Source: a virus. From it: a DNA stretch of 64,000 nucleotides. Of the stretch, positions 1-57,100 are shown one piece after another. The position numbers and the translations under genes are program-made. The DNA lies in the IMG/VR virus record IMGVR_UViG_3300032245_000795, positions 1 through 64,000 of that record; one strand, written 5' to 3'. The notes under the pieces were generated by a model. The model saw nothing but the letters and a program-made list of their open reading frames with translations, did not search any database and was not told the DNA's origin. Each line of letters begins with the position of its first letter. Position 1 is the first letter of the stretch.

Positions 1-18
1 AAAACATGCTCAGGTTTA
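1..18 (-). ncRNA. partial copy of repeated H-type pseudoknot motif (cut by window start)
   Basis: minus strand AAAC-CUGAGCAU-GUUU; same loop as the other copies. Confidence 0.55.
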
Positions 19-32
19 TTAGTAGCCCCCTA

Positions 33-449
33 CTAAATATCGATACGGTCAACACTGGATGATAAATAAGTTACACCCTGCGGTTCTGATACTGAGTCAA
101 AATCAATTTCATGAATTAAATTCATTGCTGATTCTTCATCTCGTGCATTGACTGTAATTGAATATTGAACTGTAACTTCTAATTCAAATTCTTTTGATAA
201 TTCAAATCCGCAAATATCTGCAATTGATTGAGCAGTGTCTTCATCAATGGTACCAAATTCCATTGCTTCCAAGGTCCACTCTTGCATTTCATTAGTGATA
301 CGTGAGCGCTCTGCAGCCTCACCATATGAGCGCTGAGTTACTTTTTGGATGTGCTCTTCAAGTTGTTGAATTCGTTCTTTGTTTTGCACAAGAGTGGTTT
401 CTAAAAACTCTCGTGTCATGTAGTGATTGTCGATTACTGGTTGGTCCAT
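33..449 (-). CDS. hypothetical phage protein (N-terminal coiled coil)
   Basis: 138-aa ORF with AGAAAGAGG RBS and an upstream promoter at 482-503. Confidence 0.8.
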   Translation of the reverse strand: MDQPVIDNHYMTREFLETTLVQNKERIQQLEEHIQKVTQRSYGEAAERSRITNEMQEWTLEAMEFGTIDEDTAQSIADICGFELSKEFELEVTVQYSITVNARDEESAMNLIHEIDFDSVSEPQGVTYLSSSVDRIDI

Positions 450-481
450 GGGGGCCTCTTTCTGTTAGTTTGTTTAATTTA

Positions 482-511
482 ATTGTACTACGTGCCACTG
501 ACATTTGTCAA
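482..511 (-). promoter_or_regulatory. promoter TTGACA..TGTCAG-N10-TACAAT (PafBC/RecA-NDp-like)
   Basis: minus strand ttgaca-aatgtcagtggcacgtag-tacaat. Confidence 0.75.
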
Positions 512-523
512 GGGCCCTTTAGG

Positions 524-551
524 GTGAGCCTTTTTGGATCCTGCTCAGGAT
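524..551 (-). ncRNA. degenerate pseudoknot repeat copy
   Basis: AUC-CUGAGCAG-GAU-CCAAAAAG-GCUCA. Confidence 0.5.
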
Positions 552-627
552 GTCTGCTTCTTTGGGGCTGCAGTACCCCTGCTCTATAGTATTTCTATTA
601 TCGCCCTAATCAGCCTGGCGAATTATG

Positions 628-656
628 TTGAGCAGTTTATACACTTACTCAGGTGT
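628..656 (-). ncRNA. pseudoknot repeat copy
   Basis: ACAC-CUGAGUAA-GUGU-AUAAAC-UGCUCA. Confidence 0.65.
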
Positions 657-706
657 CTTATCTCAGGCATACCTGCACATCATGGCGCAGGCTTAGCAGA
701 GATAAA

Positions 707-1129
707 TTATAGGTAGCGAGCCACCGCATTGTATGTTGAGGTATTTACTGTTTCCTCATCTGTCATCTTTAAGATACGAATAGCATTTTCGATTTCCTCT
801 TTCATCTCACGATAAGTATGAGAACCCATTTGCTCAAAGTCACGCTCAGGTTCTTTTGGTAGTTCTGCCTGTGTAACTGTTAAGTCAAAGTCAATGTTCA
901 ATGTGTTATTCCATGAACGATAGTTAGTGCGGAAGTTTTCTGCCTTCTTGATGTTGGCAACGGCATAAGCAGAAAGTTCCTTCTGCCACTTTTCTCTTGC
1001 CTTTGTGTATTTTGCTTCATTTGCTTCTTGATTAGCATAGTTAGTGTTTAGTTCTACTAACTTTGTCTCAAGTGCCTTGATTACCTTTGGTGTTGCGATT
1101 TTAACGCTGATTGCTTTTCCTCTTGCCAT
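707..1129 (-). CDS. hypothetical protein (likely start MARGK at 1129)
   Basis: ORF track 707..1180; AAGGAAAAG RBS precedes ATG 1129, and the upstream extension overlaps an RNA motif. Confidence 0.8.
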   Translation of the reverse strand: MARGKAISVKIATPKVIKALETKLVELNTNYANQEANEAKYTKAREKWQKELSAYAVANIKKAENFRTNYRSWNNTLNIDFDLTVTQAELPKEPERDFEQMGSHTYREMKEEIENAIRILKMTDEETVNTSTYNAVARYL

Positions 1130-1160
1130 GTGGGTCTTTTCCTTTTCTGTTAGGGGGTTT

Positions 1161-1190
1161 GTTGAGCAGTTTGTATTCATGCTCAGGAAT
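1161..1190 (-). ncRNA. pseudoknot repeat copy
   Basis: AUUC-CUGAGCAU-GAAU-ACAAAC-UGCUCA. Confidence 0.65.
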
Positions 1191-1201
1191 AACTAATTAG
1201 A

Positions 1202-1366
1202 TTACTTAGCCGTCCAAGTTGTATAGCGGTGTGCGCCATTGACATCTAACTTAACACGAACATTTCCATTAGCCTGTGGTTCGATTGCTACGATTGTGCC
1301 TGTGACCTTTGACTTCTGTGTTGTGTATAGGTCGCCTACCTTGTATGTTGCTGTTGCTACTGACAT
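1202..1366 (-). CDS. 54-aa small beta-rich (SH3/KOW-like) protein, not in ORF track
   Basis: MSVATATYKVGDLYTTQKSKVTGTIVAIEPQANGNVRVKLDVNGAHRYTTWTAK; AAGGAG RBS; promoter at 1396-1417. Confidence 0.8.
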   Translation of the reverse strand: MSVATATYKVGDLYTTQKSKVTGTIVAIEPQANGNVRVKLDVNGAHRYTTWTAK

Positions 1367-1395
1367 TTATTTCTCCTTTGTTGTTGTATGTATTA

Positions 1396-1425
1396 AGTAT
1401 AACATTTCCTACTGACATTTTTCAA
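1396..1425 (-). promoter_or_regulatory. TGTCAG-N10-TATACT promoter
   Basis: ttgaaa-aatgtcagtaggaaatgt-tatact. Confidence 0.75.
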
Positions 1426-1526
1426 GTTGATACCTGAATAATCTCACTATGTGGAATTGTTATTTTGTTATGTAATAAGTATAGCAAAAAATCTAAGAAA
1501 TCTCAAATCCTGGGGAGGTTTTGGGG

Positions 1527-1542
1527 TGTGTCCTTAATCACA
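1527..1542. promoter_or_regulatory. CRP-like box (1 mismatch)
   Basis: TGTGT-ccttaa-TCACA. Confidence 0.5.
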
Positions 1543-1674
1543 TCTTAAATAGCATGTTAAAACTTGACAAATTAAAAATTTTGCGCTAGGGGGCCCATTT
1601 CACAACGGGCTTGCAAAAATTGCATATAAAAATATTGCAGTTAAAAATAAAATAATTATTTGTTTCATGCTATC

Positions 1675-2397
1675 TCATTTCTTAGTCGCAGAAAAAATTA
1701 TGTCACTCTTAGAGTATACACACAATGAACAAGAAACGCAAGCGGAGCCAGCCGATGAGATAAGTGGAATTTGTTTATTATTCTCAGGACACTTAGCGGC
1801 AGGACGACCAATCATTTCTTTTACATCTGCTTGACCAATAGCAAAATTCTTAGCAAGGTATGCCATGCGAACACCACTATTAATTTTTAGATCAACGGCA
1901 GTCTTAACATTCTCGCTATCTGCAGAAAAGTATAAACTAAGATTAGGAATGTCCTTAAGAATAAGCGCTGCACTCTTCACACGGGTGTACACCCAGAATT
2001 GAACATCCTCATGCTTATCAATAATTACTTTCCATGCATAGGCATAGGTATCATTAAAGAAATCTCCGTCCCAGTGGATGCGGAATAGCATAGGTGCATC
2101 TTTCTTGATACAATCATTCTTGAAATCAACAATCATCTCATTAAGCAAGCGGACCATAGTTTCGCCGTCTGCATCTTTAAGTAGATCCCAATTGTGTAAT
2201 AGATTTACTTTAACGGAAGGGAATACCTTTTCCAATTTGCCTGCATAGCAAACACTCTCGCAGACACTCGTAGCGCCAGGACATGAATAAGCCTTTCCTG
2301 CAGGTAATCCGAATGTATTGGCAATTGCTGCTTGTTTTCCATTTTTTGTGACAAGGTTAGCCACCTTTCTATCATTAGAACGTTTTAGTTTAGTCAT
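1675..2397 (-). CDS. GP88-like protein (actinophage gene product 88 family; Cys cluster)
   Basis: FGLPAG..SCPGAT..C...CYA, FRIHWDGDF, FWVYTR, and C-terminal CP..C..C..C motifs. Confidence 0.7.
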   Translation of the reverse strand: MTKLKRSNDRKVANLVTKNGKQAAIANTFGLPAGKAYSCPGATSVCESVCYAGKLEKVFPSVKVNLLHNWDLLKDADGETMVRLLNEMIVDFKNDCIKKDAPMLFRIHWDGDFFNDTYAYAWKVIIDKHEDVQFWVYTRVKSAALILKDIPNLSLYFSADSENVKTAVDLKINSGVRMAYLAKNFAIGQADVKEMIGRPAAKCPENNKQIPLISSAGSACVSCSLCVYSKSDIIFSATKK

Positions 2398-2507
2398 TAG
2401 TTATAACTCTCCTTGCAGTTAGCGCAAATTGAATGGAGTTTACAATAGCATGATTTAGCATCAGGGCGTATCATGTCTGTTTCATAGTAATCGTCATAGA
2501 AATCCAT
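2397..2507 (-). CDS. 36-aa Cys-rich protein
   Basis: MDFYDDYYETDMIRPDAKSCYCKLHSICANCKESYN; stop overlaps the next ATG (TAATG). Confidence 0.6.
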   Translation of the reverse strand: MDFYDDYYETDMIRPDAKSCYCKLHSICANCKESYN

Positions 2508-2513
2508 TGTGGG

Positions 2514-2654
2514 CTACTCTCTTTCTTTCTTTAATTGTATCATCAGGGACTGACATTTTTTACGGTCATACTTTTTCTTATTGGGTACGGCAGAGGCTGC
2601 ATTACTACGGCGTAATTCCATAAGCCTACGTAATTCCTCTTTTGATTTCTTCAT
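2514..2654 (-). CDS. 46-aa basic leaderless protein
   Basis: MKKSKEELRRLMELRRSNAASAVPNKKKYDRKK...; ATG 6 nt after TAAGAT of a TTGACA-18-TAAGAT promoter (2661-2690). Confidence 0.6.
   Translation of the reverse strand: MKKSKEELRRLMELRRSNAASAVPNKKKYDRKKCQSLMIQLKKERE
2534..2555 (-). promoter_or_regulatory. TGTCAG-N10-TACAAT promoter
   Basis: aatgtcag-tccctgatga-tacaat. Confidence 0.7.
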
Positions 2655-2699
2655 AAATTAATCTTAGCATACATGGGGATAAAATGTCAAATCTTAAAC

Positions 2700-2744
2700 T
2701 GTGATCAATCTCACACGGCGACACGCTAGATAAATTAACCTAGG
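2700..2744. promoter_or_regulatory. regulatory cassette: CRP box, CGACACGC, CTAG/CCTAGG
   Basis: TGTGA-tcaatc-TCACA 2700-2715; CGACACGC 2719-2726; CCTAGG 2739-2744. Confidence 0.7.
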
Positions 2745-2745
2745 C

Positions 2746-2773
2746 GATTTTGTGCAGGGAAGCACACAAAATC
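2746..2773. terminator. hairpin at the end of a gene block
   Basis: GATTTTGTG...CACAAAATC inverted repeat just after stop 2781. Confidence 0.5.
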
Positions 2774-2780
2774 ACTTTTA

Positions 2781-3020
2781 CTATTCTTCTTCAGTAAAAA
2801 CATACAACGGAATTAAATCCGTGTATGCATACTGTGTAAATTCTTTTTCACCAAATTCGTTTTGAGTTTGTATGTCATAGTTATCTCCAGTAGAATCACT
2901 TTCAATAAAAATTACTTCAACAATGTCTTCATCAACTTTAATTAAATCACCAAGCATTACTTGGTCTGGTGTTAAGTTATCTGCGTGGATCAATTCCATA
3001 GCAATCATTGTATCAGACAT
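2781..3020 (-). CDS. hypothetical protein
   Basis: 79-aa ORF, tightly coupled operon. Confidence 0.75.
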   Translation of the reverse strand: MSDTMIAMELIHADNLTPDQVMLGDLIKVDEDIVEVIFIESDSTGDNYDIQTQNEFGEKEFTQYAYTDLIPLYVFTEEE

Positions 3021-3290
3021 TTATTCTCCCTCTGGTAGCCAAAATGATAAGTGGTGTTGGTCTACAATTGCGTGTGCGGGTGCGTGACTCATTCCCTTAT
3101 AGAATACGCCTTCAGGCATAGCAATAAATCGGTTATAGTCCTCATCATAGTATGCGTCAATAGCATCTATGCAAGGTTGCACCATAGATAGTGGCACTGG
3201 TGGATAGTGATTACCTTGTAAGTGATAGGCAATCTGAGTTTCTAAGTCAAGCACTGAGTCCTGTATTCCTAACGCTGTTACGCTTCCCAT
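3021..3290 (-). CDS. hypothetical protein (HLQGNHYPPVP motif)
   Basis: 89-aa ORF, coupled. Confidence 0.75.
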   Translation of the reverse strand: MGSVTALGIQDSVLDLETQIAYHLQGNHYPPVPLSMVQPCIDAIDAYYDEDYNRFIAMPEGVFYKGMSHAPAHAIVDQHHLSFWLPEGE

Positions 3291-3508
3291 TATCGTGTTA
3301 CCACCATTCCTGTTTTGTAGAAAGTTTTTGTGTGCATTTTGCCTGATGGCTCTGATAGATTAACTGTTGCGTATTCATTAGCAAATCCGTGGTCTGTAAA
3401 TTTTTGATAAACTTCAACGGCAGATAAAGCATCACTATAACGACCAACCCACTTAGGCGTAGGTGATGAGTCATAGGTACAAGTAACTGAGTATAGGTAT
3501 TCGTTCAT
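3290..3508 (-). CDS. hypothetical protein, homologous to N-half of 29526..29981
   Basis: shared D.GFA.EY.TV.L.EP.GK..TK. Confidence 0.8.
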   Translation of the reverse strand: MNEYLYSVTCTYDSSPTPKWVGRYSDALSAVEVYQKFTDHGFANEYATVNLSEPSGKMHTKTFYKTGMVVTR

Positions 3509-3699
3509 TAGTTATTCTCCTTATAGTTTTCGTTCATGATACTTTCAGAATACCATTCGCAGTATTCATTTTCAAGAGACACGCCTTTAGCGCACTCACA
3601 AAATTCTGAGTCAAAGTCCTCGCCACCATTACCAAAAAAGAGGACACCCTCATCATAGCAATCGGTGCAATCAACCAAAAAGTCTAATAAGTTTCCCAT
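3508..3699 (-). CDS. small Cys-rich (CxxC...CxC) protein
   Basis: 63-aa ORF, coupled. Confidence 0.7.
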   Translation of the reverse strand: MGNLLDFLVDCTDCYDEGVLFFGNGGEDFDSEFCECAKGVSLENEYCEWYSESIMNENYKENN

Positions 3700-3703
3700 T
3701 TAT

Positions 3704-3916
3704 TTATTCTCCAACTCTTACAGATAGATAACGATAAGTGTCCTTTAGATTAAATACTGAAGGATAGTGAGGGCGTACCTGAACGCGATAACTTTCTAAG
3801 CCTGCGCCATAAAAGACATCAGACTTTTCTGCGTCAATTATTTCTCCTGTTAAAGTGCGTGAGTGATAAGTTTTTCCTACAAGTAGGTTTTCTATTGAAT
3901 AGACATTTGCTGACAT
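3704..3916 (-). CDS. small hypothetical protein
   Basis: 70 aa; AGAGG RBS; promoter at 3949-3970. Confidence 0.75.
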   Translation of the reverse strand: MSANVYSIENLLVGKTYHSRTLTGEIIDAEKSDVFYGAGLESYRVQVRPHYPSVFNLKDTYRYLSVRVGE

Positions 3917-3948
3917 TTGCCAACCTCTTTCTTTGTTGTTATTTATTT

Positions 3949-3970
3949 ATCCTACCATTAGGGTCTGACA
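3949..3970 (-). promoter_or_regulatory. TGTCAG-N10-TAGGAT promoter
   Basis: tttgtcag-accctaatgg-taggat. Confidence 0.7.
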
Positions 3971-4071
3971 AATATTTGTTATTTATTTTTCTTACTATGT
4001 AAGTTTAACCTATTAGACAAAAGTTATCAAACTACTGCCGAGTAGTCTTAAATAATGAGACGCTCAAGCCA

Positions 4072-4173
4072 TGTGATAAACTTCACAAAATTTTGGGCGT
4101 GTCGTAAACAACTTCTTAAATGACCTGTGGATAACCTGGTCTGACCTGTGGAAAACGGCCTAGATTGCCTAGG
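4072..4173. promoter_or_regulatory. regulatory cassette: CRP box, GCGTGTCG, two DnaA-type boxes, CCTAG/CCTAGG
   Basis: TGTGA-taaact-TCACA 4072-4087; GCGTGTCG 4097-4104; TGTGGATAA 4126-4134; TGTGGAAAA 4147-4155; CCTAGG 4168-4173. Confidence 0.75.
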
Positions 4174-4179
4174 AAAAAT

Positions 4180-4209
4180 TTAAGCAGTTTTAAATCATGC
4201 TCAGGATTT
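4180..4209 (-). ncRNA. pseudoknot repeat copy
   Basis: AAAUC-CUGAGCAU-GAUUU-AAAAC-UGCUUA, just after stop 4214. Confidence 0.65.
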
Positions 4210-4213
4210 TTAT

Positions 4214-4366
4214 TTATTTTTTAAGTCGTTCAGTTCGCAATGCAACCTGCAATCTACGAATTTCTTTTTCTAATTTGATGTTGTGTTTCCAAAACGCAAT
4301 CATCATTCCAACAGATCCAGCGAGTGCAATTACGATTGCGATTAGCGTTCCATTATCTAAAATCAT
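4214..4366 (-). CDS. 50-aa single-TM membrane protein, not in track
   Basis: MILDNGTLIAIVIALAGSVGMMIAFWKHNIKLEKEIRRLQVALRTERLKK; ATGA overlap with the upstream gene. Confidence 0.7.
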   Translation of the reverse strand: MILDNGTLIAIVIALAGSVGMMIAFWKHNIKLEKEIRRLQVALRTERLKK

Positions 4367-4548
4367 TTAGACATCTCCAATTCTTTAACGCAAGCATCCC
4401 AAAATCTGTTTTCATCAAATCTTGGATTGTCTGCACTAAACCATTCACTAAATTCAAAAATTAAATCTTGAAAAACGTGAGAGTCGATGTTATCTGAAAA
4501 CTGATTTAGAATTTTTGCAGTTTCTACATAGTCTTTTCGTGTCATCAT
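4363..4548 (-). CDS. hypothetical protein, homologous to C-half of 29526..29981
   Basis: R..Y..T ... F..DN.RF...RF. Confidence 0.8.
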   Translation of the reverse strand: MMTRKDYVETAKILNQFSDNIDSHVFQDLIFEFSEWFSADNPRFDENRFWDACVKELEMSK

Positions 4549-4754
4549 TATTTTGCCACCTTAAGAATTGCATAGGACCCGCCTGCGTTAATTTCATCAA
4601 GGATAGGTCCTAACTTTGGAGCAATTAAATCCTTAAGCATTGACTCAAGCATTATGATTTGCATTTCTTTTTCAAGGTTTGCTAATTGCTTTCCTACTGG
4701 ATGAGTTTCGTCTACCTCTGTGATAAACTTTAGATTGTGTTCGATTTGTACCAT
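4548..4754 (-). CDS. hypothetical protein
   Basis: 68-aa ORF, coupled. Confidence 0.7.
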   Translation of the reverse strand: MVQIEHNLKFITEVDETHPVGKQLANLEKEMQIIMLESMLKDLIAPKLGPILDEINAGGSYAILKVAK

Positions 4755-4773
4755 TGTTTTATTTCCTATTCTT

Positions 4774-4893
4774 TTAGTTTGATTCGGGAGTGGTGAATAA
4801 TTTAGTGCATGAGCATTTAACTATTGTTATTGTGTCCGATAGCGTTTCAATAGTAGCGAGTGTATCGCATGAGTCGCATAAAAAGATTTCCAT
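4774..4893 (-). CDS. 39-aa CxxC/CxC protein
   Basis: MEIFLCDSCDTLATIETLSDTITIVKCSCTKLFTTPESN; TAATG coupling. Confidence 0.55.
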   Translation of the reverse strand: MEIFLCDSCDTLATIETLSDTITIVKCSCTKLFTTPESN

Positions 4894-5078
4894 TATAGGC
4901 TACGGCTTCCGCGTAGTGTTCCGCTAACGCCTAATGCGTCACACGATACTTTTACCGCAACGCCAACAGGTAATTGTGTTGGGTATGTTGAGATAAACTG
5001 AGCAACCGCACCGCGAGAGGCAAGGTTGATTTTCTTAGTCGAACCATTAAAGGTTTCGAGTGTTATAGTGTATGTCAT
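4893..5078 (-). CDS. hypothetical protein
   Basis: 61 aa; GAAAGG RBS; promoter at 5112-5133. Confidence 0.75.
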   Translation of the reverse strand: MTYTITLETFNGSTKKINLASRGAVAQFISTYPTQLPVGVAVKVSCDALGVSGTLRGSRSL

Positions 5079-5111
5079 TTATTGACTACCTTTCGTTAAG
5101 TTGATAAGACT

Positions 5112-5133
5112 ATCTTATACTATGGGTCTGACA
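5112..5133 (-). promoter_or_regulatory. TGTCAG-N10-TAAGAT promoter
   Basis: tttgtcag-acccatagta-taagat. Confidence 0.7.
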
Positions 5134-5140
5134 AATTAGG

Positions 5141-5358
5141 CACTTATTCGCTTAGGCTCATTGTGATACTAATCACACTTATTTGCTAAGGCTCATTGCT
5201 TATTTATCTTTATTTAATTGTTATACCTACAAGGATACCAGAAAAATCTCACAAAATCAAATCGACACGCCGTAAATAGGGGGATAAAATAGTGTGACCT
5301 TAAACACATAGGTTATCCACATCACCCTGTGGACGACACGCTAGATAGATCGCCTAGG
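5141..5358. promoter_or_regulatory. regulatory cassette: CRP boxes, DnaA box, 2x CGACACGC, CCTAGG
   Basis: TGTGA-tactaa-TCACA 5162-5177; CGACACGC 5263 and 5334; TGTGA-ccttaa-ACACA 5293-5308; TTATCCACA 5313-5321; CCTAGG 5353-5358. Confidence 0.75.
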
Positions 5359-5362
5359 TAAA

Positions 5363-5388
5363 AATTGCAGAGTTTTATTTCTGCAATT
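5363..5388. terminator. hairpin, putative terminator
   Basis: AATTGCAGA...TCTGCAATT flanked by A/T runs. Confidence 0.55.
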
Positions 5389-5848
5389 CTTTTTTATTTA
5401 TAAATTACTTTGCGAATAAAGAAAACCAAAAACAATAAATGCAATCATTACAACTAACAATTTATTTCTCCTCAATTTCGTTTAGTAAATCCCAAAGTAC
5501 TGGCTCTAACTCTAACGCTACTGCGTCAAGTTTTTCTTGAAGTGTTTTCATTCGCTAACCTCTAATTCTGTATAATCAACAACAGTAAAATCAAGTCGTT
5601 CCAATGGAACAACCTTTAACCATGATAGGGCAGACTCGAAACTATCGTCCTCAATAGTAACTGATAAATCAAAATTAAATACTGGCATTATTTAACCTCC
5701 TTGTATAAGTAGTCCCACGCCTTACGGCATAACACGATAGAGTTGCAATTATCGCAACAGATAACCCCATGAGGGTTAAGGTCTAAGTCGTACATGTCTA
5801 TTGTGGTAGTAACCGCACCACATACGGATTTAATTGGTACAAAGGTAC

Positions 5849-6031
5849 TCATCTCTTGAGTCCGTCCTTTCCATAAGTGTTGATAAAATCAGGGAGAGCC
5901 ATAACGCCCTTGTAGTCTTTACATGAAGGGCAAAATCTATTCCACCCATCAAATAGTGTTATGCAAAAGGCGCAGATGTTATCCATAGCGCATAAGCCTT
6001 GCTCATCTATAAATTGCATAGTGTCGTTCAT
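5849..6031 (-). CDS. small Zn-ribbon-like protein
   Basis: CAFC...CPSC. Confidence 0.65.
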   Translation of the reverse strand: MNDTMQFIDEQGLCAMDNICAFCITLFDGWNRFCPSCKDYKGVMALPDFINTYGKDGLKR

Positions 6032-6213
6032 TTAGTCACATACCAATCTGTCCATGTAGGAAATTGCTCAGGGTCACTATCATAGTAGTAACGCTCAATG
6101 TTGCTATCGCAATTAACGCATAGAGTAAATTGCTCATCTCCAATTTCGGAGATAGCGGAAACAAGAGGCTCGTGCCACTTGCATAGTGTGTTTAGTGTAG
6201 TCATTTTGACCAC
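6028..6213 (-). CDS. small Cys/His protein
   Basis: CKWH...CVNC; GAAAGGTGG RBS suggests the downstream ATG (MTTLN) as start. Confidence 0.65.
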   Translation of the reverse strand: MVKMTTLNTLCKWHEPLVSAISEIGDEQFTLCVNCDSNIERYYYDSDPEQFPTWTDWYVTK

Positions 6214-6258
6214 CTTTCGTAGCGGATTTCTTTACCGCTTGTTTTTCTTTATACTGTA

Positions 6259-6288
6259 ATTGTAGCATGGGGGTCTGACAAATGTCTA
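6259..6288 (-). promoter_or_regulatory. TGTCAG-N10-TACAAT promoter
   Basis: tagaca-tttgtcagacccccatgc-tacaat. Confidence 0.7.
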
Positions 6289-6314
6289 ATTGAAAATGCT
6301 ACCAATTCGGACAT

Positions 6315-6412
6315 TGTGAGCCGTATCACATGAGACATAGGTCACATTTGTATGGTCATAAATAATAATGACTATTTTTATCAGCGTGTCGGCTTGACAA
6401 AAACGGCCTAGG
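6315..6412. promoter_or_regulatory. regulatory cassette: tandem CRP boxes, GCGTGTCG, CCTAGG
   Basis: TGTGA-gccgta-TCACA 6315-6330 abutting TGAGA-catagg-TCACA 6331-6346; GCGTGTCG 6384-6391; CCTAGG 6407-6412. Confidence 0.7.
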
Positions 6413-6842
6413 TAATTTTGCAGGGGATCTACAAAACTACTAACAATTAACTAAGTGAAATACCTAACACAACACACAATGCAACAGCAACGAATGCACT
6501 GATTAGTCCTGCTGCTGGATAGTCTTCTACCCAATCAATAAACATAGTAAATGGATTCATTATTTTGTTTCCTTTTCTTTTAGCATTCCAAGAATTAAAT
6601 TAAGTTGTTCAGTTGTTAGCAACGCTTGAGCACAACCCCAAGCAAATGCAAGTGCCATTGCACTATCTCCATAGTGCTCATTTGCAAGAGTGTTTATCTC
6701 TTGCGTTATCTCGAAATTAGTTTTCATTAGTTTGTTACCTTTCTTTCCATTTTACGTGCAACAATTACCCACATGATGATGAGAGGTGTATTTAGAATTA
6801 GTGCGCCTGCAATAATCTGAAGTAGTGCTGTAGTTGCGTTCA

Positions 6843-7028
6843 TTAGTTTTCTTCTTTCGCTAATAGGTATTCGTTATTTAGGGGGCGAGAGTTATTAGAA
6901 AACATAGCCTCCACTATAGCCTTGTCTTTTATTGACTGGGCAGCACGGCGTTCCTGCTGTTCCTTTAGGATTCGATTATAAGTGTCCATGTAGGGGGTCT
7001 GACCTTTCTTGTTGTTGTTATGTTGCAA
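6843..7028 (-). CDS. hypothetical protein (true start probably MDTYN)
   Basis: ORF track; GAAAGG RBS precedes the internal ATG. Confidence 0.6.
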   Translation of the reverse strand: MQHNNNKKGQTPYMDTYNRILKEQQERRAAQSIKDKAIVEAMFSNNSRPLNNEYLLAKEEN

Positions 7029-7049
7029 GTATAGCAGGGGGGACTGACA
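7028..7049 (-). promoter_or_regulatory. TGTCAG-N10-TATACT promoter
   Basis: tttgtcag-tcccccctgc-tatact. Confidence 0.7.
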
Positions 7050-7067
7050 AATTTGGGGTACTGGTGG

Positions 7068-7148
7068 GCGTGTCGTGAAACTATTTTATGTGATTTGCAT
7101 CACAAGAAATCTAAACAGCCTGTGGATAACTTTGCCTAGGGCGTGTCG
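7068..7148. promoter_or_regulatory. regulatory cassette: CRP box, DnaA box, 2x GCGTGTCG, CCTAGG
   Basis: GCGTGTCG 7068 and 7141; TGTGA-tttgca-TCACA 7089-7104; TGTGGATAA 7121-7129; CCTAGG 7135-7140. Confidence 0.75.
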
Positions 7149-7275
7149 GATTATGTGCTCACTATTTTTTTGTGGTATTATTTTTATAAACACGTATCAT
7201 ACATCTGAACAAAATATTCAGATTTTAGGCTATTTAGGTTTAAAAAATTTTTCAGAATTATGCTATAATAAAATC

Positions 7276-7374
7276 ATGACTGAAGAACTAGACGACTATG
7301 GCTATGAAGGCGATAAGTGCTGTGCAGGATGCACATGCACTATGGCCCATAGTTCAGTGCCACCAGTAGAATAA
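7276..7374 (+). CDS. 32-aa leaderless Cys-rich peptide
   Basis: TGCTATAAT-6nt-ATG; MTEELDDYGYEGDKCCAGCTCTMAHSSVPPVE. Confidence 0.5.
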   Translation: MTEELDDYGYEGDKCCAGCTCTMAHSSVPPVE

Positions 7375-7386
7375 CTCATTTTTGTA

Positions 7387-8061
7387 ATGAGTGACCTATT
7401 TCTATTTAACTCACCACCAAGATCAGGTAATGTTTTTCTGACTCTTCTATTTTCAATGTTCATTGGTGGACCAGTAACTAAATGTCTTGAAACAGAAAAA
7501 TATTCAGATAAGTCTCAAAAGCAAGCAGTATTTTTCAGAAACCCATATGACTCAATTCCATCAACTGTAGTAAAATCCAGGGTAGATTGTGGAATAGTAA
7601 TAAACCATAATGATACTGGAGATCTAAAGAACAACATACAGATTTGCGCTAAAGAATATTTACATGCAATTAAAGAAGCAAAGAAAAATACATCTAATAT
7701 ATATATTGGTAAATCAGAAAATATGATGAACAAACCACTAGCAACAATCAAAGATATCGCTCTATTTTTTGATTTAAAAATAAAAGACAATCATGGTTTA
7801 AATGATCAGCAAATTATTGAATATATAAGACATCAAATGAACAACACAGAAAGAACCAGGGTAGATAAAAACGGTATAACAATAACAGAGACTCTTATGT
7901 CAAGTCATGACGGACATATGCCTAGAGAAAAAACAGATGATAGAATTTTCCTAGACAAACTTATACAGTCATCAGATTTAGACATTGTAACTCAATGCTA
8001 TAACGAGTATGTGTCTCTTGAATTAACAGACACAAGCAAAGGACAAAGATGGGCATCTTAG
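7387..8061 (+). CDS. sulfotransferase-like P-loop protein
   Basis: 5'-PSB-like SPPRSGNVFL and 3'-PB-like FRNPYDSIPS motifs. Confidence 0.65.
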   Translation: MSDLFLFNSPPRSGNVFLTLLFSMFIGGPVTKCLETEKYSDKSQKQAVFFRNPYDSIPSTVVKSRVDCGIVINHNDTGDLKNNIQICAKEYLHAIKEAKKNTSNIYIGKSENMMNKPLATIKDIALFFDLKIKDNHGLNDQQIIEYIRHQMNNTERTRVDKNGITITETLMSSHDGHMPREKTDDRIFLDKLIQSSDLDIVTQCYNEYVSLELTDTSKGQRWAS

Positions 8062-8252
8062 AAAATTTTGAAAACGCTTGGGATATTGATTTCCAAGAAG
8101 AACCTAAAGCACCTGAAGGTTGGGCTGCAAAAAATTTTTCAGAAACTGTATGCGAAAACTGTAGTTGTAAGCATGAAACTGAATCTACGCCTATGTCGAT
8201 AACTGACAATATGGGTAGAGAAATTTTTTGGGACGATATAGGAAGACCCTAG
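8049..8252 (+). CDS. hypothetical protein (CxxCxC)
   Basis: 67-aa ORF. Confidence 0.55.
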   Translation: MGILENFENAWDIDFQEEPKAPEGWAAKNFSETVCENCSCKHETESTPMSITDNMGREIFWDDIGRP

Positions 8253-48137: not shown

Positions 48138-51100
48138 TTGGCAGATGTAAACTCTAATATAAATATTAATTTTGATACAACTGCCGCTCTTGCACAACTA
48201 CGTTCTTTACAGGCAGGCCTCAGCAGGTTTCATCAAACACTTGCTGAGGGCAACCTGGCTGCTGCAAATGCTCAAAAAGGTTTAAACGCACAACTTATAC
48301 AATCTGTTGGTGCTACAGGAAAATTCTCAGCAAGCCAAGTTAAAGTTGCTGGAAGCACACTAGCGTTCACGTCTGCATTAGAAAAAAATAAACTATCTCT
48401 TCGTGATTATTACAGATACACCATGGCAGCAGCAACTGCCAATACTCGTGTAATGGGGAAGGCATTTGCAGAAGAACGAGAGATTATAAATCGTGCTCGC
48501 AGAGATAGAGTAAAAGCCTTACAAGCACAATATATCCAGATGAATAAATCCAATGCTGGGTTTATGGATGCAATTAAAATTATGCCAAAAAGCCTTCAAA
48601 TGGCTAGTGGAAAGTTTACAGAACTTGGAACAAGAATTCAGTATGCTGCACAAAAACAACAGTTCTTAAATCAACTATTAAAACAAGGATCAACACAACT
48701 ATTAAACTTTGGTAAGAATACTCAGTGGGCTGGTCGCCAGTTGATGGTTGGTCTCACAATGCCACTTGCCTTGTTTGGATCTGCAGCAGCAAAAGCATTT
48801 AAAGAGTTTGACGCTGAAGTTGTTAAGTTCCGTCGTGTATATGGAAATGCATTTACAAATGATGCAGAGGTTAATGCAGCAGTTGAAAATATAAGAAAAT
48901 TATCAAATGAGTATGTAAAGTATGGAGTCTCTGTTACAAAGACTATGGAGATGGCTGCAACAGCAGCAGCAGCAGGCTTTGAAGGATCAGCACTTACAAC
49001 ACAGGTTGAAACAGCAACAAAGTTAGCAGTACTTGGCCAGATTGAGCAGCAGCAGGCACTTGAAACAACAATATCTTTGCAAACTGCATTTGGTCTTTCT
49101 AGTGAAGACCTTGCAAAGAAAATTAACTTTCTTAACGCAGTAGAAAACCAAACACTTTTATCTATTGAAGATTTAACTATTGCAATTCCAAAAGCAGCAC
49201 CAGTTATAAAGCAACTTGGTGGATCTGTTGAAGATTTAGCCTTCTTCCTTACAGCAATGAAAGAGGGTGGAATTAATGCATCAGAAGGTGCTAACGCACT
49301 TAAGTCTGGTCTTGCATCATTAATTAATCCATCTGACAAAGCAGCAAAGTTTCTTGGCAACTTAGGAATTAATGTTAAAGGACTTGTTGAAGCAAACAAG
49401 GGTGACATAAAAGGAATTGTTGTTGGATTTGCAAGAGCCCTTGATGAACTTGATCCACTTAATCGTGCAAGAGCAATTGAGCAGATGTTTGGTAAGTTCC
49501 AGTTTGCACGTCTATCAACATTATTTCAGAATGTAACTAAGGATGGATCTCAAGCATCAAGAGCATTTCAATTAGCAGGGGCATCAATAGAAGAGTTAGC
49601 AATCTTATCCGAAAGAGAAATGAAGAAGATAGAAGACTCAACTGGTGCTAAATTCCAGGCAGCATTAGAGAACCTTAAGCAAGAAATTATGCCTTTAGGA
49701 AAAGCATTTCTTGAGGCTTTAACACCAGTAGTTAAGTTTTTTTCAGGACTTCTTGAAAAGTTTAATGGTCTTGGAGATAATACAAAAAAGGTTATTGCAA
49801 TAACTGTTGCAGCAGTTGCAGGTCTTGGCCCAGTACTACTTATGACATTTGGTCTTCTAATGAATGGTGTTGCAAACGTTATTAAATTGTTTGCAATGCT
49901 TCGTGGAGGAATTGCTAAGTTAAACGGACAAACAGGTGTAATGGGTGCAGGCTTTAACTATATGACACAAGAGCAGATTGAAAATGCTGCATCTTCTGAA
50001 CAACTTCACCAAACACATTCAAGATTAATACAAGTTTTTAATGTTGAAAAAAGTTCTGTAAATGCTCTTGCTGCATCCTACAATTCATTAAGTACACAGA
50101 TGAGAGGCATGGCAACACAGAACCCCGCGTTATTTGCAGGTGGAGTTCGTGGTGCTAAAAGAGCAGTAAGCGGATTACCACCAGTTAAAAAGTATAGAGA
50201 AGGAGTACTGAGCGTACCAGGTCCAAAGGGTGCAGGAGATGTTGTTCCAGCAATGCTTTCTCCAGGAGAAGCAGTTATTCCTACAGAAACAACTAATAAA
50301 TATAGAGGTTTGATTTCTGCAATGTTCCAAGATAAAGTTCCAGGATTTATGGCTGGAAGACTTCCTGGAGGACCAGGCAGAGGAATACCTTTATCATCAG
50401 GCCCAGAAGCCTTTAGAAAAGCGCAGCAGGCACAATACAGAAGAGTAAACGATGCTCGTCAGGGATATTCTGAACCACATCCAGAAAAGAAAACAGGACC
50501 AACTTTTGTTGGAATGCCAAAGGGATCTCAAGAAGCGTCACAGTCTAGACAAATTTTAGATAAGATTTCAGATCAAGTTAAAATTGGAAAATTTGGATCT
50601 GTTCCACCAACAAACTTTGGAACAATGCTTCAATCATTTTCTGGAAGAAGTTTTCCTGCACGTGGAGTTGGCGGTGTATACAGAAAATCTAATGGACAGA
50701 TAGTAGTAGTAAAACCAACAATAGATGAAAAAACTGCATTGGCAGAAGTTCGTGCTACTCAAATTGCTAGAGAAGTTCATGGACTTGTATCTCCAAAGCA
50801 AACTATTAGAACAATGATGGATCCAACAGATCCAACAGGTCAAAGAAAGTTTATTGTGATTGAGTCCCCATATGATCCAAGAATAGCCTCTATGACTGGT
50901 AAGTTTTCAAAGTCTGACATGGTTAAGCAATTAGTTGCATCAACGCTAAGAGGAGACAAAGATTTACAAAAACCAAACTTGTCTGGAAATGTGTTAGCAG
51001 ATGTTGGAACTGCTGGAGTATTCGATAGGGCATCTGGCTTTAGAGATTTTGCTAAAGTTATGCCAAGCATGGAACAACAAGCAGTTGTAAATCTTCTTGG

Positions 51101-54100
51101 AGTTAAGGGTGGAGCAAAGAAGTTTTTTGCACAAGAAACATCTGGTGTAGCAGCATCTATGTCTCCAAAAGACTATGATTTAGCAATAAAGACAGAAATT
51201 TCTAAATCAATTCCAAGACTAGAAAAACTTCTTAAGACTTGGAATTTAAATCCAGAAGAAAAAATTGTTTATGGAAATATGCTACAAAGACTCAGAGATG
51301 GAGCAAAAACAGATTGGGCAGCATTACAGCCTATACATGCTCGTGCAGGAGAAGGAGTTGCTAAATTAGAATTAGGAAACTTTGAAAAATTCCAAAATGT
51401 TCCAGAGTCAAAAGCACAAGTTGAAAAACTTGTAGAGGGTTTATCAAAAGATGCAGCAGAACAATTGGAAAAGTTACCTAAAGAACAAAGAGATAGAGTG
51501 CTTGCTGCACTAGGAAAAGAAAAACCAGCACCAACACATATGAGCCAAGCAAGGCTAATGAAATTTGTAGAACAAAATATGGTTTACAAAGATGGTCTAT
51601 TCCATGATAAAAAATCTTTAGATGCTGGAAGTACAACATCTGGAAAAACTTATGAAGAAGTTATGAAGAAAGTTTTTTATCAGATGGGCCTTCAAGAAAA
51701 AGATGGTTCTTTTGTAAGCGATAAAAAATTAAATGTTCCATCTAAACTAAAGTCTGCAATGAGCACTGTAGACAAAGCAGGTGGAGGCTGGAGAACAAAC
51801 GTACCAAAAAGTTCATTGCTTTGGAAAGCCTTAGATGCAGAAGAGCAAAGTTTTAGAGCAGCAAATATGGCTGCAGGCAAAAACGATCCATTAAAAAATG
51901 TAAGAGAAAAACTTAAGTCTCTAGGTTATAATGAAAAACAAATTGCTACTGCGCTAAGATCTGAGTTATCGCATGTAGAAAAAACTGGAGAATCTGGAAG
52001 AGGTCCTGCAAAGTATTCAAAGGGATCAGCAATGTTCGACTTAAGACTACTAAATAACTACATGAATACAAAGACTAGACCTCAAAGTATTTTAGACTGG
52101 AACGCAAAAAATGGAAATGCTCTTGGATTAACAGCAACACAGATTAAAGAATTTCAAAAAGCAGCAAACTATATGAAACCTGGGGCACACCCAATAACAT
52201 TAGATGATATAAAATTAGTTCAAAAATCCGCACAACTTGATGTTTTAGCAGATGAATATCTAAAACAACAAAAGGTAAAGCCAAAGGGTTTTCCAAAACT
52301 AGGACAAGTTAATGCTTCTAAGGGGCTTTTGGCACTTCTTGATGACAGAATTGGAACAGGATACTACAAATCTTCAAAACCAATTTTTAATTTATCAAGC
52401 GGTGTAGATCAAAGTCAAAAGGTTTTAGTAGATCCAAATAACGAATTTAAAGTCGATACTAAGACTGGAAAAGTAACAAAGTTAACAAACGCTAATACAG
52501 GAGCAAAGCCTGCTGGAGCAGTTGCTAGTAGTGGAAGTTCAAGAGACAGAAGGACTACGACAGAAACACCAACACAAAGAGTTGCAACAAGAAGTCAACT
52601 TACAAGTTTCCGCAGAGGGTTTGGTAAAATTCCTGGATTCTCTATGCCTGGAAAAATCAAGGGAGACCCAAGACTAACAAACCCTACAGTAAAACAAGGA
52701 CAGTTAGCATTGCAGTTACGTGGCAAAGGATATAGCCAGGTAGAAATTGATAGAGCACTTAGAAGGTTTGCAGAAAAAGAATTAAAAAATAAAGAATCAC
52801 AGGTTCGTGCTGCTGAAAAATCAGCAAGAGCAGAAGCAGCAAGACAAAAAGAACAAGCAGCAATACAAAAAAAACAAACAGATGTTGCAAGAAAAGCATT
52901 TATAGAAAATGAGCGCAGATCACAACTAAATGCAGCACAAGCAAGAACATATGATGCTGCAGTAAAAGAAGATCAAAAGAGAACAATAAAAAATCAAAAA
53001 CAAACTGAAAAAGTAAATGCTAAACAAACAAGAATAGCACGTCAAGAAAAGGTTGGTAGATTCTCTGGCGGTGCATCTATGGCTCTTGGAACTGTTGGTA
53101 TGGGTCTTATGATGTCTGGGAATACAAATGCTGGCATGGCTGTATCAGGTTTGTCAGCCCTTGCAGGAATGGCCCCGATGCTTGCTGGTATGGGACCAGT
53201 AGGAGTAGCCCTGACTGCTGTAGCAGCAGTTGGTGGAGGGCTTTGGATGCTAGACAAGGCAGCAAAGAAAGCAGCAGAATCACAGTCTAGACAAGTTGAT
53301 GCAACAAGAGCAACAACAGAAAAAATGAAAACCATTGGAGAAATGAATGGCAAAGTTGGAGCATCTGAAATTTATGCAAGAAAAAGAAAAGAATCGGTAG
53401 CCAATAGATATTCTATTGGTTTTGAAAGAGGAAAAACCCAATATGGATCAGACTTTTTAAAAGAACAAGTTGGAAAAGATATGTTTTCTGGCATTATAGA
53501 AAGTTTAAAGTCTGGTTCTAAAAATGTTGCATCTCAGGTAGCAACAGAACTTGCTGGTTATATTTCTGATGGAATATTAACTGCACAGCAAGCAAACAGT
53601 ATTGCTGATCAGATTGGAATTGAGTTAGGCAATACTACAATTGGTGCAGATATTACTGGAAAACTACTAGAATTGGTCGGTCCAAATGGAGAAGATTTAT
53701 TAACAAATCCACTAGAAGTAAGAGTTAAAATAGTTAAAGAACAACAGAAAAATACTCAATTAGTTATGAGTGAGTTAGAAAAGTATTATAATTGGTCAGG
53801 TAAAAACAATAACGGTTTTGATGACAAGTCCGATGCTGCAAACGCTGCAGAAGTTTTTGCATCTCAGGCTGCAGCAGCAAATGTACAGGATTTAGAGTTT
53901 AATCAAGCGCAAATAGATTCTTTAAATCTTGAGTACGACAATAAAATAAAAATACTTGAAGCACAAAAAGCAACTACATCAGACAAAGCAAAGCAGTTAG
54001 AAATTCAAGGAAAAATTGATGCTGCTGAGAAAGATCGTATAACAGGAACAAAAAAATTACGAGAAAATAATAGAAAAATTATACAAGAACAAATGAAAGC

Positions 54101-57100
54101 CCTTAAGTTTGTAAAGACAAATCAAAAACAAGGTTCAGAGGCAAGTGTAGAAACTGCATACTTTGAAGCATTAAAAACTCAAGTTAGGGACAAGTACAAA
54201 GACGATCCAACACAAAATGCATTTGTAGATAAATTTTTTCAAGTTGCACAGAATGCAGGTAGCCAAGAAATAGAAGCAAAGATTATGACTGTTGTTGGTT
54301 CTGGTCAAATGCCAGTTACATCAGCAGTTAAGTTAATGGAAATGTTTGCTGGAGATGAAAAAGGACTTAATAAGATTCTTAATGTAACAACATCAATTGC
54401 AGATCCTGGAAAAGTAACAGAGTTCTTAAACTCTATTGAATTAATAACAGATCCCAATACAAAAAAAGAGATTATGGTAGAACTAACACAAAAGTCTCCA
54501 AAAGAAGCAGAAGGAATAATGTCTGCTTTTAATATGATGAAATTATTAAATCCAGAAATAAATATAGACTTCTTTTTTAAAGATGGTGGCGCAGCAGGAA
54601 TTGGAAAACTTAAGGAAATTGCAGACAAACTTGAAGAAGTTCAAAAAATAAAAGAGCCAATAACAACAAAGTTTTTGCTAGAGACAAAAGAAATTGGTGG
54701 GGTAAACCTAGAAGATCTTATTCCAATTATGGAAAAATACAAAAATCAACCAGATGTTATAAAAAAACAAGTTATTTCACAATATATTGTTATAAAAGAA
54801 ACACTTAATCCAGGAGAGATTGCAGCAGAAAAGAAAAGGCTTTTAGCAGGATATAAGGGAAATCCAAAGGGAGCCGAGCAGTATTCGGAGTACCTAAACT
54901 CTCCAGAAGGAACAAAATATGTTACAAATAAGGTTGTTGAAAATAAAATTGCACAAGCCATTAAGCCTGAGATAGAAGCACTAGAGGCAGCACGTCTTGA
55001 AGCAGAAAAACTAAAGGGAGATAAAGTTACTGACCCATTTGAATGGATGTTAGCAGCATTAAAGAATGTTCGCAACGCTGCAATAGATGCAAAGGGTGGA
55101 ATTGAAGAATTAAAAAGAGCACTTGCAAAAATTGGTCCAAAGGCTGTAGGAGATAAGTTCTTAGGAATAGATCAACAAATGATTGCTCAAGGACGTAATA
55201 AGCAGTTTATTGATTACGCTATGGGATTAACACCTGATGAGCAGGCAAAACTTTTCACTACCGCTGGACCTAAAAATAAAAGTGGTAAAAACAAGGGAAG
55301 AATACAAGACCCATATAACAAGGGCAAATTATTACCAGAGACAGCAAAACAAGGCGATGTAGTACTATCTAGCCTTGGAAAAACATATAATAGTTTCTTT
55401 GATGCAAAAGTCATTGGAGATTTCAATGCTGCAATGGGCAGATCTCTTTCATCAATAAAAGATCAAGAGAAGGCAAGAATTAAATTAGTTGCTGCTGGAT
55501 ATGATTCTGCAACAATAGAAGGTCTAATATCAGATGAATATACTACACAGTTAATTGCTTCAGGTAAAATAACAGAAGGTCAACTAAAGCAAAATGTTGA
55601 AATTTCTAAAGAACTTGCCAATAGACAAAAAATTAATAGCCTACTTTCTAGAGGTACATCAGAATTGCAAAGGCAAGCAGATATGTCAAGAGCAGCACAG
55701 GCTGCAAAGTTCTTACGTAGTCAAGGTGTTTCAGAAGATGGTGTGAGGGCAGCCCTTGCAGATGCAGGTTCATTGTCAGAAGCAATTGCTGCTATGGATC
55801 AATATAACTCTTCTGCTGGGCTTGCTGCTGGTACACTTAAAACCATTGTTGATGGACTTAACGCTATAAAGGCAAACTCAAATATAGAATTAATTCTTAA
55901 ATTTACAACAGCAAATGTTTCAGGGCAGATTCAGCAAGGAGCAGAAGCAGCCAAAAAGATAATGGACTCAAAGAGAACAGTCTACAATAATCTAACTGCT
56001 GACAAATTAAAAAATGCAACTTCGGCATATACAGATTCAAGTAAAGCCCCTCAACAAGTTGGTAAGATTGCAACAGCAACTGTAGATGCAAGGTATAAAG
56101 CAACAAATACTCCAATACCAGTGATATCAGAAGGCGCAACAATAAAGAGTCTTCAAAAAGCAATGGAAACTAAGGCTAAAGAAATAGATCTTTCATCTTC
56201 AAATCTTAGCAAGGCTAAATCTGCAGCGTCTGCAGTAAGAGATCAAATTTCAAATGCAGAAAACGCTTTGCAGACAGCACTAGATAATGCTAATGCAGGC
56301 GTTGATAAAGCAATTAAGGGAGTTCAAGATGTCATTAGAGGTTATGAAAATCAGATCAAGTCAATAGAAAAAACTATAAAGTCCAGAGAAGATGAAATAA
56401 AGAAAAGATTTACAGATAAAATAGAGGCATTTAATAAAGAAAACCAAATGCTAAGTAATGACCTTGCAATAATGGACAAGGCTGCAGAAGATATTAATGA
56501 GAAGTATGATAAGCAAGTAGAAGCCTTGCAGGAAGTAAACAAATTAAATCAAGAAATTATTGATGCACAGGGACAGCAGTTAGACCTGGCTGATGCTCTT
56601 TCTCAAGGTGATATCGCAGCAGCAGCAAGAGTTGCAAATGAGATGTCAGCATCTTATGCAAACAATCAAGCAGACACAATAATGCAGGGTATTGAACTTG
56701 CCAGAACTAATGATTTGTCAGCCTTAACTGGTGCAGAAAGCGGACTAACTGCAGATGCTATTTCAGAAAGACAATTTGCTATAAGTCAAGAAATTTATAA
56801 ACTAGAAACAGATCCTGCAAGATTGGCAATTGAAGCAGAAATACTAGCACTAAATGAAAGTGCTCTTGCAGTACAAGAATTAATTGCTGCAAAACAAGAA
56901 GAGATTGATCAAATTGAGGCTGGAAGAGCAAATATTTTAGCAGGTGTAGAGGCAGCCCATGCAGCAAACCTAAAGGCTTTGAATGATTCTTTAGTTCCAC
57001 TTGATGAGGCAGTAAAGAAAAATGAAGGAATATTAAAAAAGTTAGAAGATGAAGAAGAAGCATTGTCAGCACAAAAAGGATATCTTGAAGCAATTGCAGA

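Follow-up and report, generated by a model that had tools for sequence, protein, structure and literature searches.

What reads a series of promoter-like sites that share the hexamer TGTCAG at the left end of a phage genome in which no matching regulator can be recognized? The sites lie in the first 64 kb (hereafter the window, the whole stretch of DNA that was first annotated) of a 115,083-bp virus record, IMGVR_UViG_3300032245_000795, which is rated complete and has 36.6% GC. An initial annotation of this DNA had described seven such sites as DNA-damage promoters of the type activated in actinobacteria by PafBC, a WYL-domain activator, and had proposed that the host's damage activator or a phage mimic of it drives early genes from them. 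Our analysis makes it fairly probable that the seven sites are PafBC-type promoters, used by SigA RNA polymerase together with the PafBC activator of the host.

The pattern TGTCAG-N10-TAnnnT occurs on the minus strand at seven sites within 482-7049. In plus-strand numbering, CTGACA starts at 498, 1412, 2550, 3965, 5128, 6275, and 7044, and the corresponding −10 hexamers occupy 482-487, 1396-1401, 2534-2539, 3949-3954, 5112-5117, 6259-6264, and 7028-7033. The N10 spacing is kept in 7/7 sites, and a tolerance of 9 to 11 nt yielded no extra site in the block. Over the 64-kb window, the composite pattern was observed 9 times versus 0.73 expected (standard deviation, 0.81; maximum of 3 in 100 shuffles), whereas TGTCAG alone was not enriched (35 observed versus 35.05 expected); the signal therefore comes from the constant spacing and the grouping of the sites. 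The only two other TGTCAG copies on the minus strand in 1-7400, at 1360-1365 and 3910-3915, fall at gene starts, where ATG-TCA-G opens two of the first genes. We further trained a weight matrix solely on 35 sites from five related phages, with ten Markov-shuffled genomes as the null. This matrix recovered exactly these seven sites in the 115,083-bp genome, with scores of 21.9 to 36.3 bits, while no score in the rest of the genome exceeded 12 bits and the null maximum was 13.6. The other exact pattern matches in the genome, at 11186 (+), 20567 (−), and 99549 (−), had no matrix score and are chance or coding matches.

Read along the minus strand, each site consists of an A/T-rich triplet, TGTCAG, a C-rich spacer, usually TGn, and TAnnnT, followed by a Shine-Dalgarno (SD) sequence and an ATG, which lie 26 to 54 nt past the −10 at all seven sites. 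A TGn extended −10 is present at five of the seven promoters, and just three have a −35 hexamer with at least 5/6 matches, each at a spacing of 18 nt. Thus, the positions, the invariant spacing, the placement of every copy at the head of small open reading frames (ORFs), and the absence of a good −35 from several sites all proved to be as the initial annotation had described them. Two other candidate elements were discarded: TTGTCA cannot serve as a −35 hexamer because its spacer would be 11 nt, and AATGTCCG, considered as an upstream element, was weakly enriched and was dropped.

The seven promoters head seven units that together form a block of 23 leftward ORFs of 36 to 240 amino acids (aa) at 33..6989 (−). 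P7049 (7028..7049, minus strand, as are all the promoters and units that follow), the most upstream of the seven, faces a divergent intergenic region; its box at 7044-7049 precedes a TGc extended −10, TATACT, at 7028-7033 without a −35 (36.0 bits), and its unit (6989 to 6447) holds four ORFs of 37 to 55 aa. The highest score, 36.3 bits, belongs to P6280 (6259..6280; box, 6275-6280), which combines a TGc extended −10 (TACAAT, 6259-6264) with a −35-like TAGACA at 18 nt and heads four ORFs of 46 to 60 aa (6204 to 5548). P5133 (5112..5133) has its box at 5128-5133 and the −10 TAAGAT at 5112-5117, lacks both TGn and a −35, and scores 21.9 bits; five ORFs of 39 to 68 aa follow (5078 to 4214). Five ORFs, of 63 to 89 aa (3916 to 2781), also lie behind P3970 (3949..3970; 29.1 bits), where the box at 3965-3970 is joined to a TGg extended −10, TAGGAT, at 3949-3954, again without a −35. 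At P2555 (2534..2555; 34.7 bits), the box at 2550-2555 and the TGa extended −10 TACAAT at 2534-2539, with no −35, precede a 36-aa ORF and the 240-aa protein encoded at 1675-2397 (unit, 2507 to 1675). P1417 (1396..1417; 31.4 bits) has its box at 1412-1417, a TGt extended −10, TATACT, at 1396-1401, and a weak −35, TTGAAA, and heads ORFs of 54 and 157 aa (1366 to 707). Finally, P503 (482..503; 33.4 bits) carries its box at 498-503, the −10 TACAAT at 482-487, and the −35 TTGACA at 18 nt; its predicted +1 is at about 475, and its unit is a single ORF of 138 aa (449 to 33).

Searches of PHROGs, Pfam, and a protein atlas with the 23 cargo proteins gave a name to one alone, the 240-aa protein, which belongs to the GP88 family (PF17338; 7e-54). 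The relative of GP88 in an L5-like mycobacteriophage belongs to a block of leftward genes at that genome's right end. Judging from gene size, orientation, and this analogy, the 23 small genes are probably early genes.

To what extent the sites are maintained was seen in a comparison set of five related complete genomes with portal proteins 77 to 99% identical; at least 598 related contigs are present in the viral collection. Each of the five relatives has 5 to 11 co-oriented copies in one stretch of 5 to 13 kb, and a reversed control pattern was almost without matches. In a profile of 42 unique sites from the six phage genomes, position −23, which had been left free in the search pattern, is G in 42/42, and the box reads TGTCAG at 40 sites and TGTCGG at 2, so that −24 is either A or G, which corresponds to the R of the TGTCRG consensus cited in the initial annotation. 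Outside the box, A occupies −31 in 38/42 sites, positions −21 to −19 are C-rich, TG stands at −15/−14 in 31/42, and the predicted +1 is A in 35/42. A −35 with at least 5/6 matches is found at 9/42 sites; the other 33, including four of the seven here, have none, and those with one have TTGACA-like hexamers at 17 to 18 nt. Within groups of orthologous sites, 60% of the columns in the spacer and 52% of those in the upstream flank are variable, compared with 0% in TGTCAG, which indicates that purifying selection acts on the box.

As a control for ascertainment bias, we used protein similarity alone to find the orthologues of the gene that opens each unit and then read the DNA upstream. The exact box was present at 20/25 orthologous gene heads. 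Among the five exceptions, two showed no promoter-like element, and in three a TTGACA or TTGATT −35 at 17 to 18 nt stands before the same −10 in place of the box. These box-to-(−35) swaps (loci L146 in genome G003, L147 in G002, and L145 in G005) lie upstream of orthologues of the genes at 1366 to 1202 and 3916 to 3704. Because the −35 hexamer replaces the box at orthologous heads, the two are evolutionarily interchangeable, and the box behaves as an alternative upstream promoter element. As a separate observation on this lineage, a related phage contig encodes a RecA-like protein (G006:C2:38610-39353; PF00154, 137 bits).

The geometry of the phage box is that of PafBC promoters, also known as RecA-NDp or recA P1-type promoters and described as cases of "sigma adaptation." The published in vivo consensus is tGTCgg(N10)tA(N3)T, with its 5' part at −23 to −28 and no −35; its GTC triplet is strictly conserved across actinobacteria and is read by R46 and R50 of PafB (PMC8635444). 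The phage sites share with these promoters TGTC(A/G)G at −28 to −23, the invariant GTC, and the N10 to a SigA-type TAnnnT, and most of them also lack a −35 (PMC8635444, PMC11804915), so the agreement that the initial annotation had asserted does hold at the level of sequence. PafBC is switched on by single-stranded DNA (ssDNA) bound to its WYL domains (PMC11804915), and according to the same account, stable binding of PafBC requires RNA polymerase at the promoter. The phage copies differ from host PafBC promoters in being viral, in occurring as 5 to 11 co-oriented copies per genome at about 1 per kb, and in driving orphan small genes rather than repair genes.

The actinobacterial setting that this likeness presupposes is supported by the rest of the genome. 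A WhiB protein with four Cys residues and a GVWGG turn is encoded at genome positions 95635-95919 (PF02467, 42.7 bits); WhiB-family genes are used as indicators of actinophages (PMC10202952, PMC10914622), and all 174 matches of this WhiB among cultured phages come from phages that infect Actinobacteria. The GP88 protein had 388 matches, of which 386 are Mycobacterium, Streptomyces, or Fromanvirus phages, and the portal is closest, among cultured phages, to those of 120- to 134-kb Streptomyces phages of the Stanwilliamsviridae (46 to 48%). On WhiB, the GP88-family gene, and the Stanwilliamsviridae-like portal, the phage is classed as an actinophage, and a non-actinobacterial host, suspected from the 36.6% GC, was rejected on the same relatives. 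Portal kinship and GC together thus describe a low-GC relative of Stanwilliamsviridae-type Streptomyces phages. The genome further encodes an HK97-type portal, protease, and capsid protein, a class II ribonucleotide reductase, and a 4,089-aa ORF at 48138-60407; no tRNA genes were found in it, and megablast of the window against cultured phages gave no match. No tyrosine integrase was found in the genome, and the phage looks lytic.

For the host side, the sample comprised 201 genomes of one actinobacterial class, and in 20 of them we inspected recA together with the DNA preceding it. TGTC[G/A/T]G-N10-TAnnnT lies upstream of recA in 18 of these 20. Five single-contig genomes of 1.38 to 1.47 Mb have TGTCAG at recA, with a LexA-type box directly after it; the recA PafBC-type promoter of these genomes also has TGn, and over a run of 12 nt, one of the five recA promoters matches phage site 503 exactly. 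By size and GC (43 to 46% locally in one of them, G148), the five streamlined genomes fit acI Nanopelagicales, to which we infer that they belong, and they are treated here as candidate hosts. Each encodes two adjacent WYL proteins. The pair in G148, the only one examined (L151, C1:704000-713000), consists of a pafB-like gene (WYL, WCX) and pafC (HTH_PafC, WYL, WCX), followed by tatC. The order pafB-pafC-tatC is that of mycobacteria. Aligned with the Mycobacterium smegmatis PafB of the RNA polymerase complex 7P5X (E value, 4e-39), the G148 protein is identical in the RMFERDK stretch that contains R46 and R50; with its DNA-reading helix thus conserved, PafB could be studied directly in the mycobacterial in vitro system already in use. 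Genomes flagged as unpublished in the sample underlie none of these results. At the same locus, a TrmI-type tRNA methyltransferase gene occupies the expected place of pafA, and the neighboring PD-(D/E)XK nuclease gene carries a conserved TGTCGG box at its start. Whether A or G stands at −24 was considered as a marker of host genus and set aside as a weak clue, both forms being present in both groups of candidate genomes.

The candidate hosts contain about 10 pattern matches per 1.4 Mb, close to the control count. Most TGTCAG-N10-TAnnnT matches in these genomes (G148, G103, G209, G169, and G189) are grouped in one stretch of about 15 to 35 kb. In G148, this island (L149/L150, C1:439654-467143) holds 8 of the 11 matches in the genome, each about 20 to 180 nt upstream of a gene; the genes encode a type II C5 methyltransferase, an OGG-like glycosylase, two TPR proteins, a trypsin-like protease, and three unknown proteins, and the island may be a PafBC-controlled repair or defense island. 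Comparison of the phage early genes with this island revealed no homology, barring one unrelated 296-aa protein at 30% identity.

On these grounds, the phage probably plugs into the DNA-damage switch of its host. The housekeeping SigA RNA polymerase of the host would read the sites with the aid of PafBC, and the winged helix of PafB would contact the GTC of the box at −28 to −23, as at known PafBC promoters; because PafBC would be located between the DNA and sigma region 4, a −35 hexamer would not be needed. We infer that PafBC binds these sites and that their activity depends on it, PafBC being active, as at known promoters, only when ssDNA occupies its WYL domains. By this mechanism, the phage would have placed the box in exact register with a SigA −10, usually TGn extended, ahead of seven small-gene units, and these units would be fired or boosted once ssDNA appears in the cell, whether from infection itself (processing of incoming DNA, breakdown of host DNA, or replication) or from ultraviolet (UV) damage to the host.

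Several observations weigh against this explanation. At the spacer positions −22 to −19, the host boxes read TGGC or TGCC, whereas most phage sites read (A/T)CCC; most phage sites also have A at −29, and TGn is frequent among them. The 36.6% GC of the phage is lower than the 43 to 46% of the candidate hosts, and family searches with the cargo genes returned no link to DNA repair. With TGn at 5/7 sites and a −35-like hexamer at 3/7, some PafBC-independent activity is plausible. A scan of species-representative genomes with WhiB, considered as a route to the host, was abandoned, as the matches were phage contigs binned into metagenome-assembled genomes (MAGs) of four unrelated taxa: contigs of the lineage (L102 to L105; WhiB 63 to 81% identical) sit in MAGs labeled Chitinophagaceae, Methylococcus, Polynucleobacter, and Aquiluna, placements that are probably binning contamination in public genomes. 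The genera of these MAGs are mostly freshwater ones, and on that basis the phage is probably a freshwater phage. Finally, the cultured relatives Coruscant, Wakanda, Phredrick, and NicoleTera (three Streptomyces phages and one GP88-bearing mycobacteriophage) showed background counts of the pattern and no cluster; therefore, the cluster arose as a novelty within this freshwater lineage and is not a habit of actinophages at large, and those laboratory phage systems are not directly usable.

If the sites were constitutive SigA extended −10 promoters, in which TGTCAG is a lineage-specific spacer or upstream element that aids the holoenzyme or a general factor and resembles the PafBC box by coincidence, then the TG at −15/−14 in most sites of the profile and in 5/7 here, the near-consensus −10 hexamers, the good −35 at 9/42 sites, and the ability of canonical −35 promoters to stand in for the box at orthologous positions would all be expected. 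Yet the box is conserved more strictly than the inner −10 positions, stands in the exact PafBC register, and recurs as the same hexamer at recA of low-GC actinobacteria, whereas it is missing both from the canonical promoter of the neighboring leftward genes (9513-9485) and from the cultured relatives scanned; we therefore regard coincidence as rather unlikely. A phage protein that reads TGTCAG in place of the −35 contact, in the manner of MotA/AsiA of phage T4, is a doubtful candidate. Such a factor could be injected or made from the upstream canonical promoter that heads the leftward genes 9407-8249, the block contains many unannotated small proteins, and the cluster is specific to this phage lineage. 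Against it, a phage factor would need neither the host's box, nor its register, nor the freedom between A and G at −24; searches of the phage genome found no WYL domain, PafC-type helix-turn-helix (HTH), or sigma70 region 2, and no candidate DNA-binding protein was identified. Since there is no phage WYL gene, a phage-encoded mimic of that kind is unsupported. The genome-wide search for a WYL gene that the initial annotation had called for came back empty, and the phage appears to have no recognizable factor of its own for these promoters.

Boxes that act mainly as decoys, their 7 to 11 copies per genome multiplied by replication so as to soak up PafBC and blunt the damage or defense response of the host, with promoter activity secondary, are very improbable. 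The phage block does have about 1 box per kb versus about 10 matches per 1.4 Mb in the candidate hosts, and 8/11 of the G148 matches fall within a single island, where a type II methyltransferase gene is also found. However, the boxes all point the same way, and each stands in exact spacing with a −10, a +1 A, an SD, and a start codon, none of which a decoy needs; the requirement of RNA polymerase at the promoter for stable PafBC binding (PMC11804915) also speaks against decoys. Use of the sites as promoters by SigA RNA polymerase with host PafBC remains the explanation that we prefer.

How would such promoters compare with known systems? In the middle promoters of T4, a MotA box at −30 acts with AsiA in "sigma appropriation" (PMC8635444); there, as is proposed for the phage, a box within the normal spacer replaces the −35 contact and times a class of genes. 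Both T4 factors are phage encoded and remodel sigma region 4, whereas here no phage factor was found and the box is the host's own; box sequence, position, and host phylum all differ as well. The search for T4-type factors in this phage covered WYL, PafC-HTH, and sigma-like proteins, of which none was found; the MotA and AsiA families themselves were not searched. Some phage genes are tied to the host SOS response via LexA boxes or RecA-dependent repressor cleavage. Phages wired through LexA/RecA in this way resemble the proposed case in coupling their own expression to the host DNA-damage signal, but they work by repression and relief, whereas here an ssDNA-bound activator would act, and neither an actinobacterial LexA box nor a tyrosine integrase was found in the phage. 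CapW, another WYL regulator, responds to phage infection through the same ssDNA-binding WYL surface (PMC11662680). Like PafBC, CapW and BrxR are ssDNA-sensing WYL proteins that alter transcription upon phage infection or DNA damage (PMC11662680, PMC9122601); unlike it, they are homodimeric repressors of host defense operons, whereas PafBC is an activator that the phage would exploit.

A literature search found no paper linking PafBC boxes to phage promoters, and the "sigma adaptation" exerted by PafBC is known solely from the response of hosts to DNA damage. If the proposed mechanism is true, a widespread lineage of lake phages would provide the first example of a virus that has borrowed the PafBC promoter architecture. 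It would mean that an ssDNA alarm can be converted into a phage timing device, and a concrete regulatory link would tie UV or other DNA damage to the expression of phage genes in the bacteria that are most abundant in fresh water. The lineage would also offer dozens of natural promoter variants, including the box-to-(−35) swaps, for dissecting the −26 element.

The block contains further elements that resemble host operators. Exact TGTGA-N6-TCACA palindromes of the CRP/GlxR type occur at 2700-2715, 4072-4087, 5162-5177, 6315-6330, and 7089-7104, and the 115-kb genome has no others. Each promoter from P2555 to P7049 has one of these five upstream, centered about 64 to 180 nt ahead of its predicted +1. 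All seven genomic copies of a CGACACGC box fall within 2719..7148, in early intergenic regions and in both orientations, as do five of the seven copies of CCTAGGC. TTATCCACA DnaA-type boxes are found at 4126-4134, 5313-5321, and 7121-7129. It is conceivable, albeit speculative, that host operator sequences have been assembled in the early arm into a sensor with several inputs on the state of the host, in which the PafBC box would act together with CRP/GlxR-, DnaA-, and GACAC/WhiA-like boxes and the host alarm would be the ignition of takeover genes. If so, the host's first warning of infection would be the start signal of the phage, and the same alarm in the candidate hosts would also head the island with the type II methyltransferase and the glycosylase.

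At its upstream boundary, the block is flanked by a short rightward unit (7075-8252, +) that is conserved in the relatives. In the divergent intergenic region 7050-7330, the leftward P7049 is opposed by a rightward promoter-like site, TTAAAA-N18-TATAAT, at 7240-7269, and the region also contains a CRP-type box, a DnaA-type box, and two CGACACGC boxes. Beyond the rightward unit, the leftward genes 9407-8249 are headed by a canonical TTGATT-N17-TGaTACAAT promoter at 9513-9485 and not by TGTCAG. Outside the window, three more TTATCCACA DnaA-type boxes lie at genome positions 112210-112382, and this group near 112.2 to 112.4 kb may be a replication origin. On the minus strand, repeats containing CCTGAGCA occur at 14, 549, 1187, 4205, and 6072; the copy at 6072 lies within an ORF, while four of the five are directly past stop codons, three of them at the 3' ends of units. 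These repeats may be RNA 3'-end structures.

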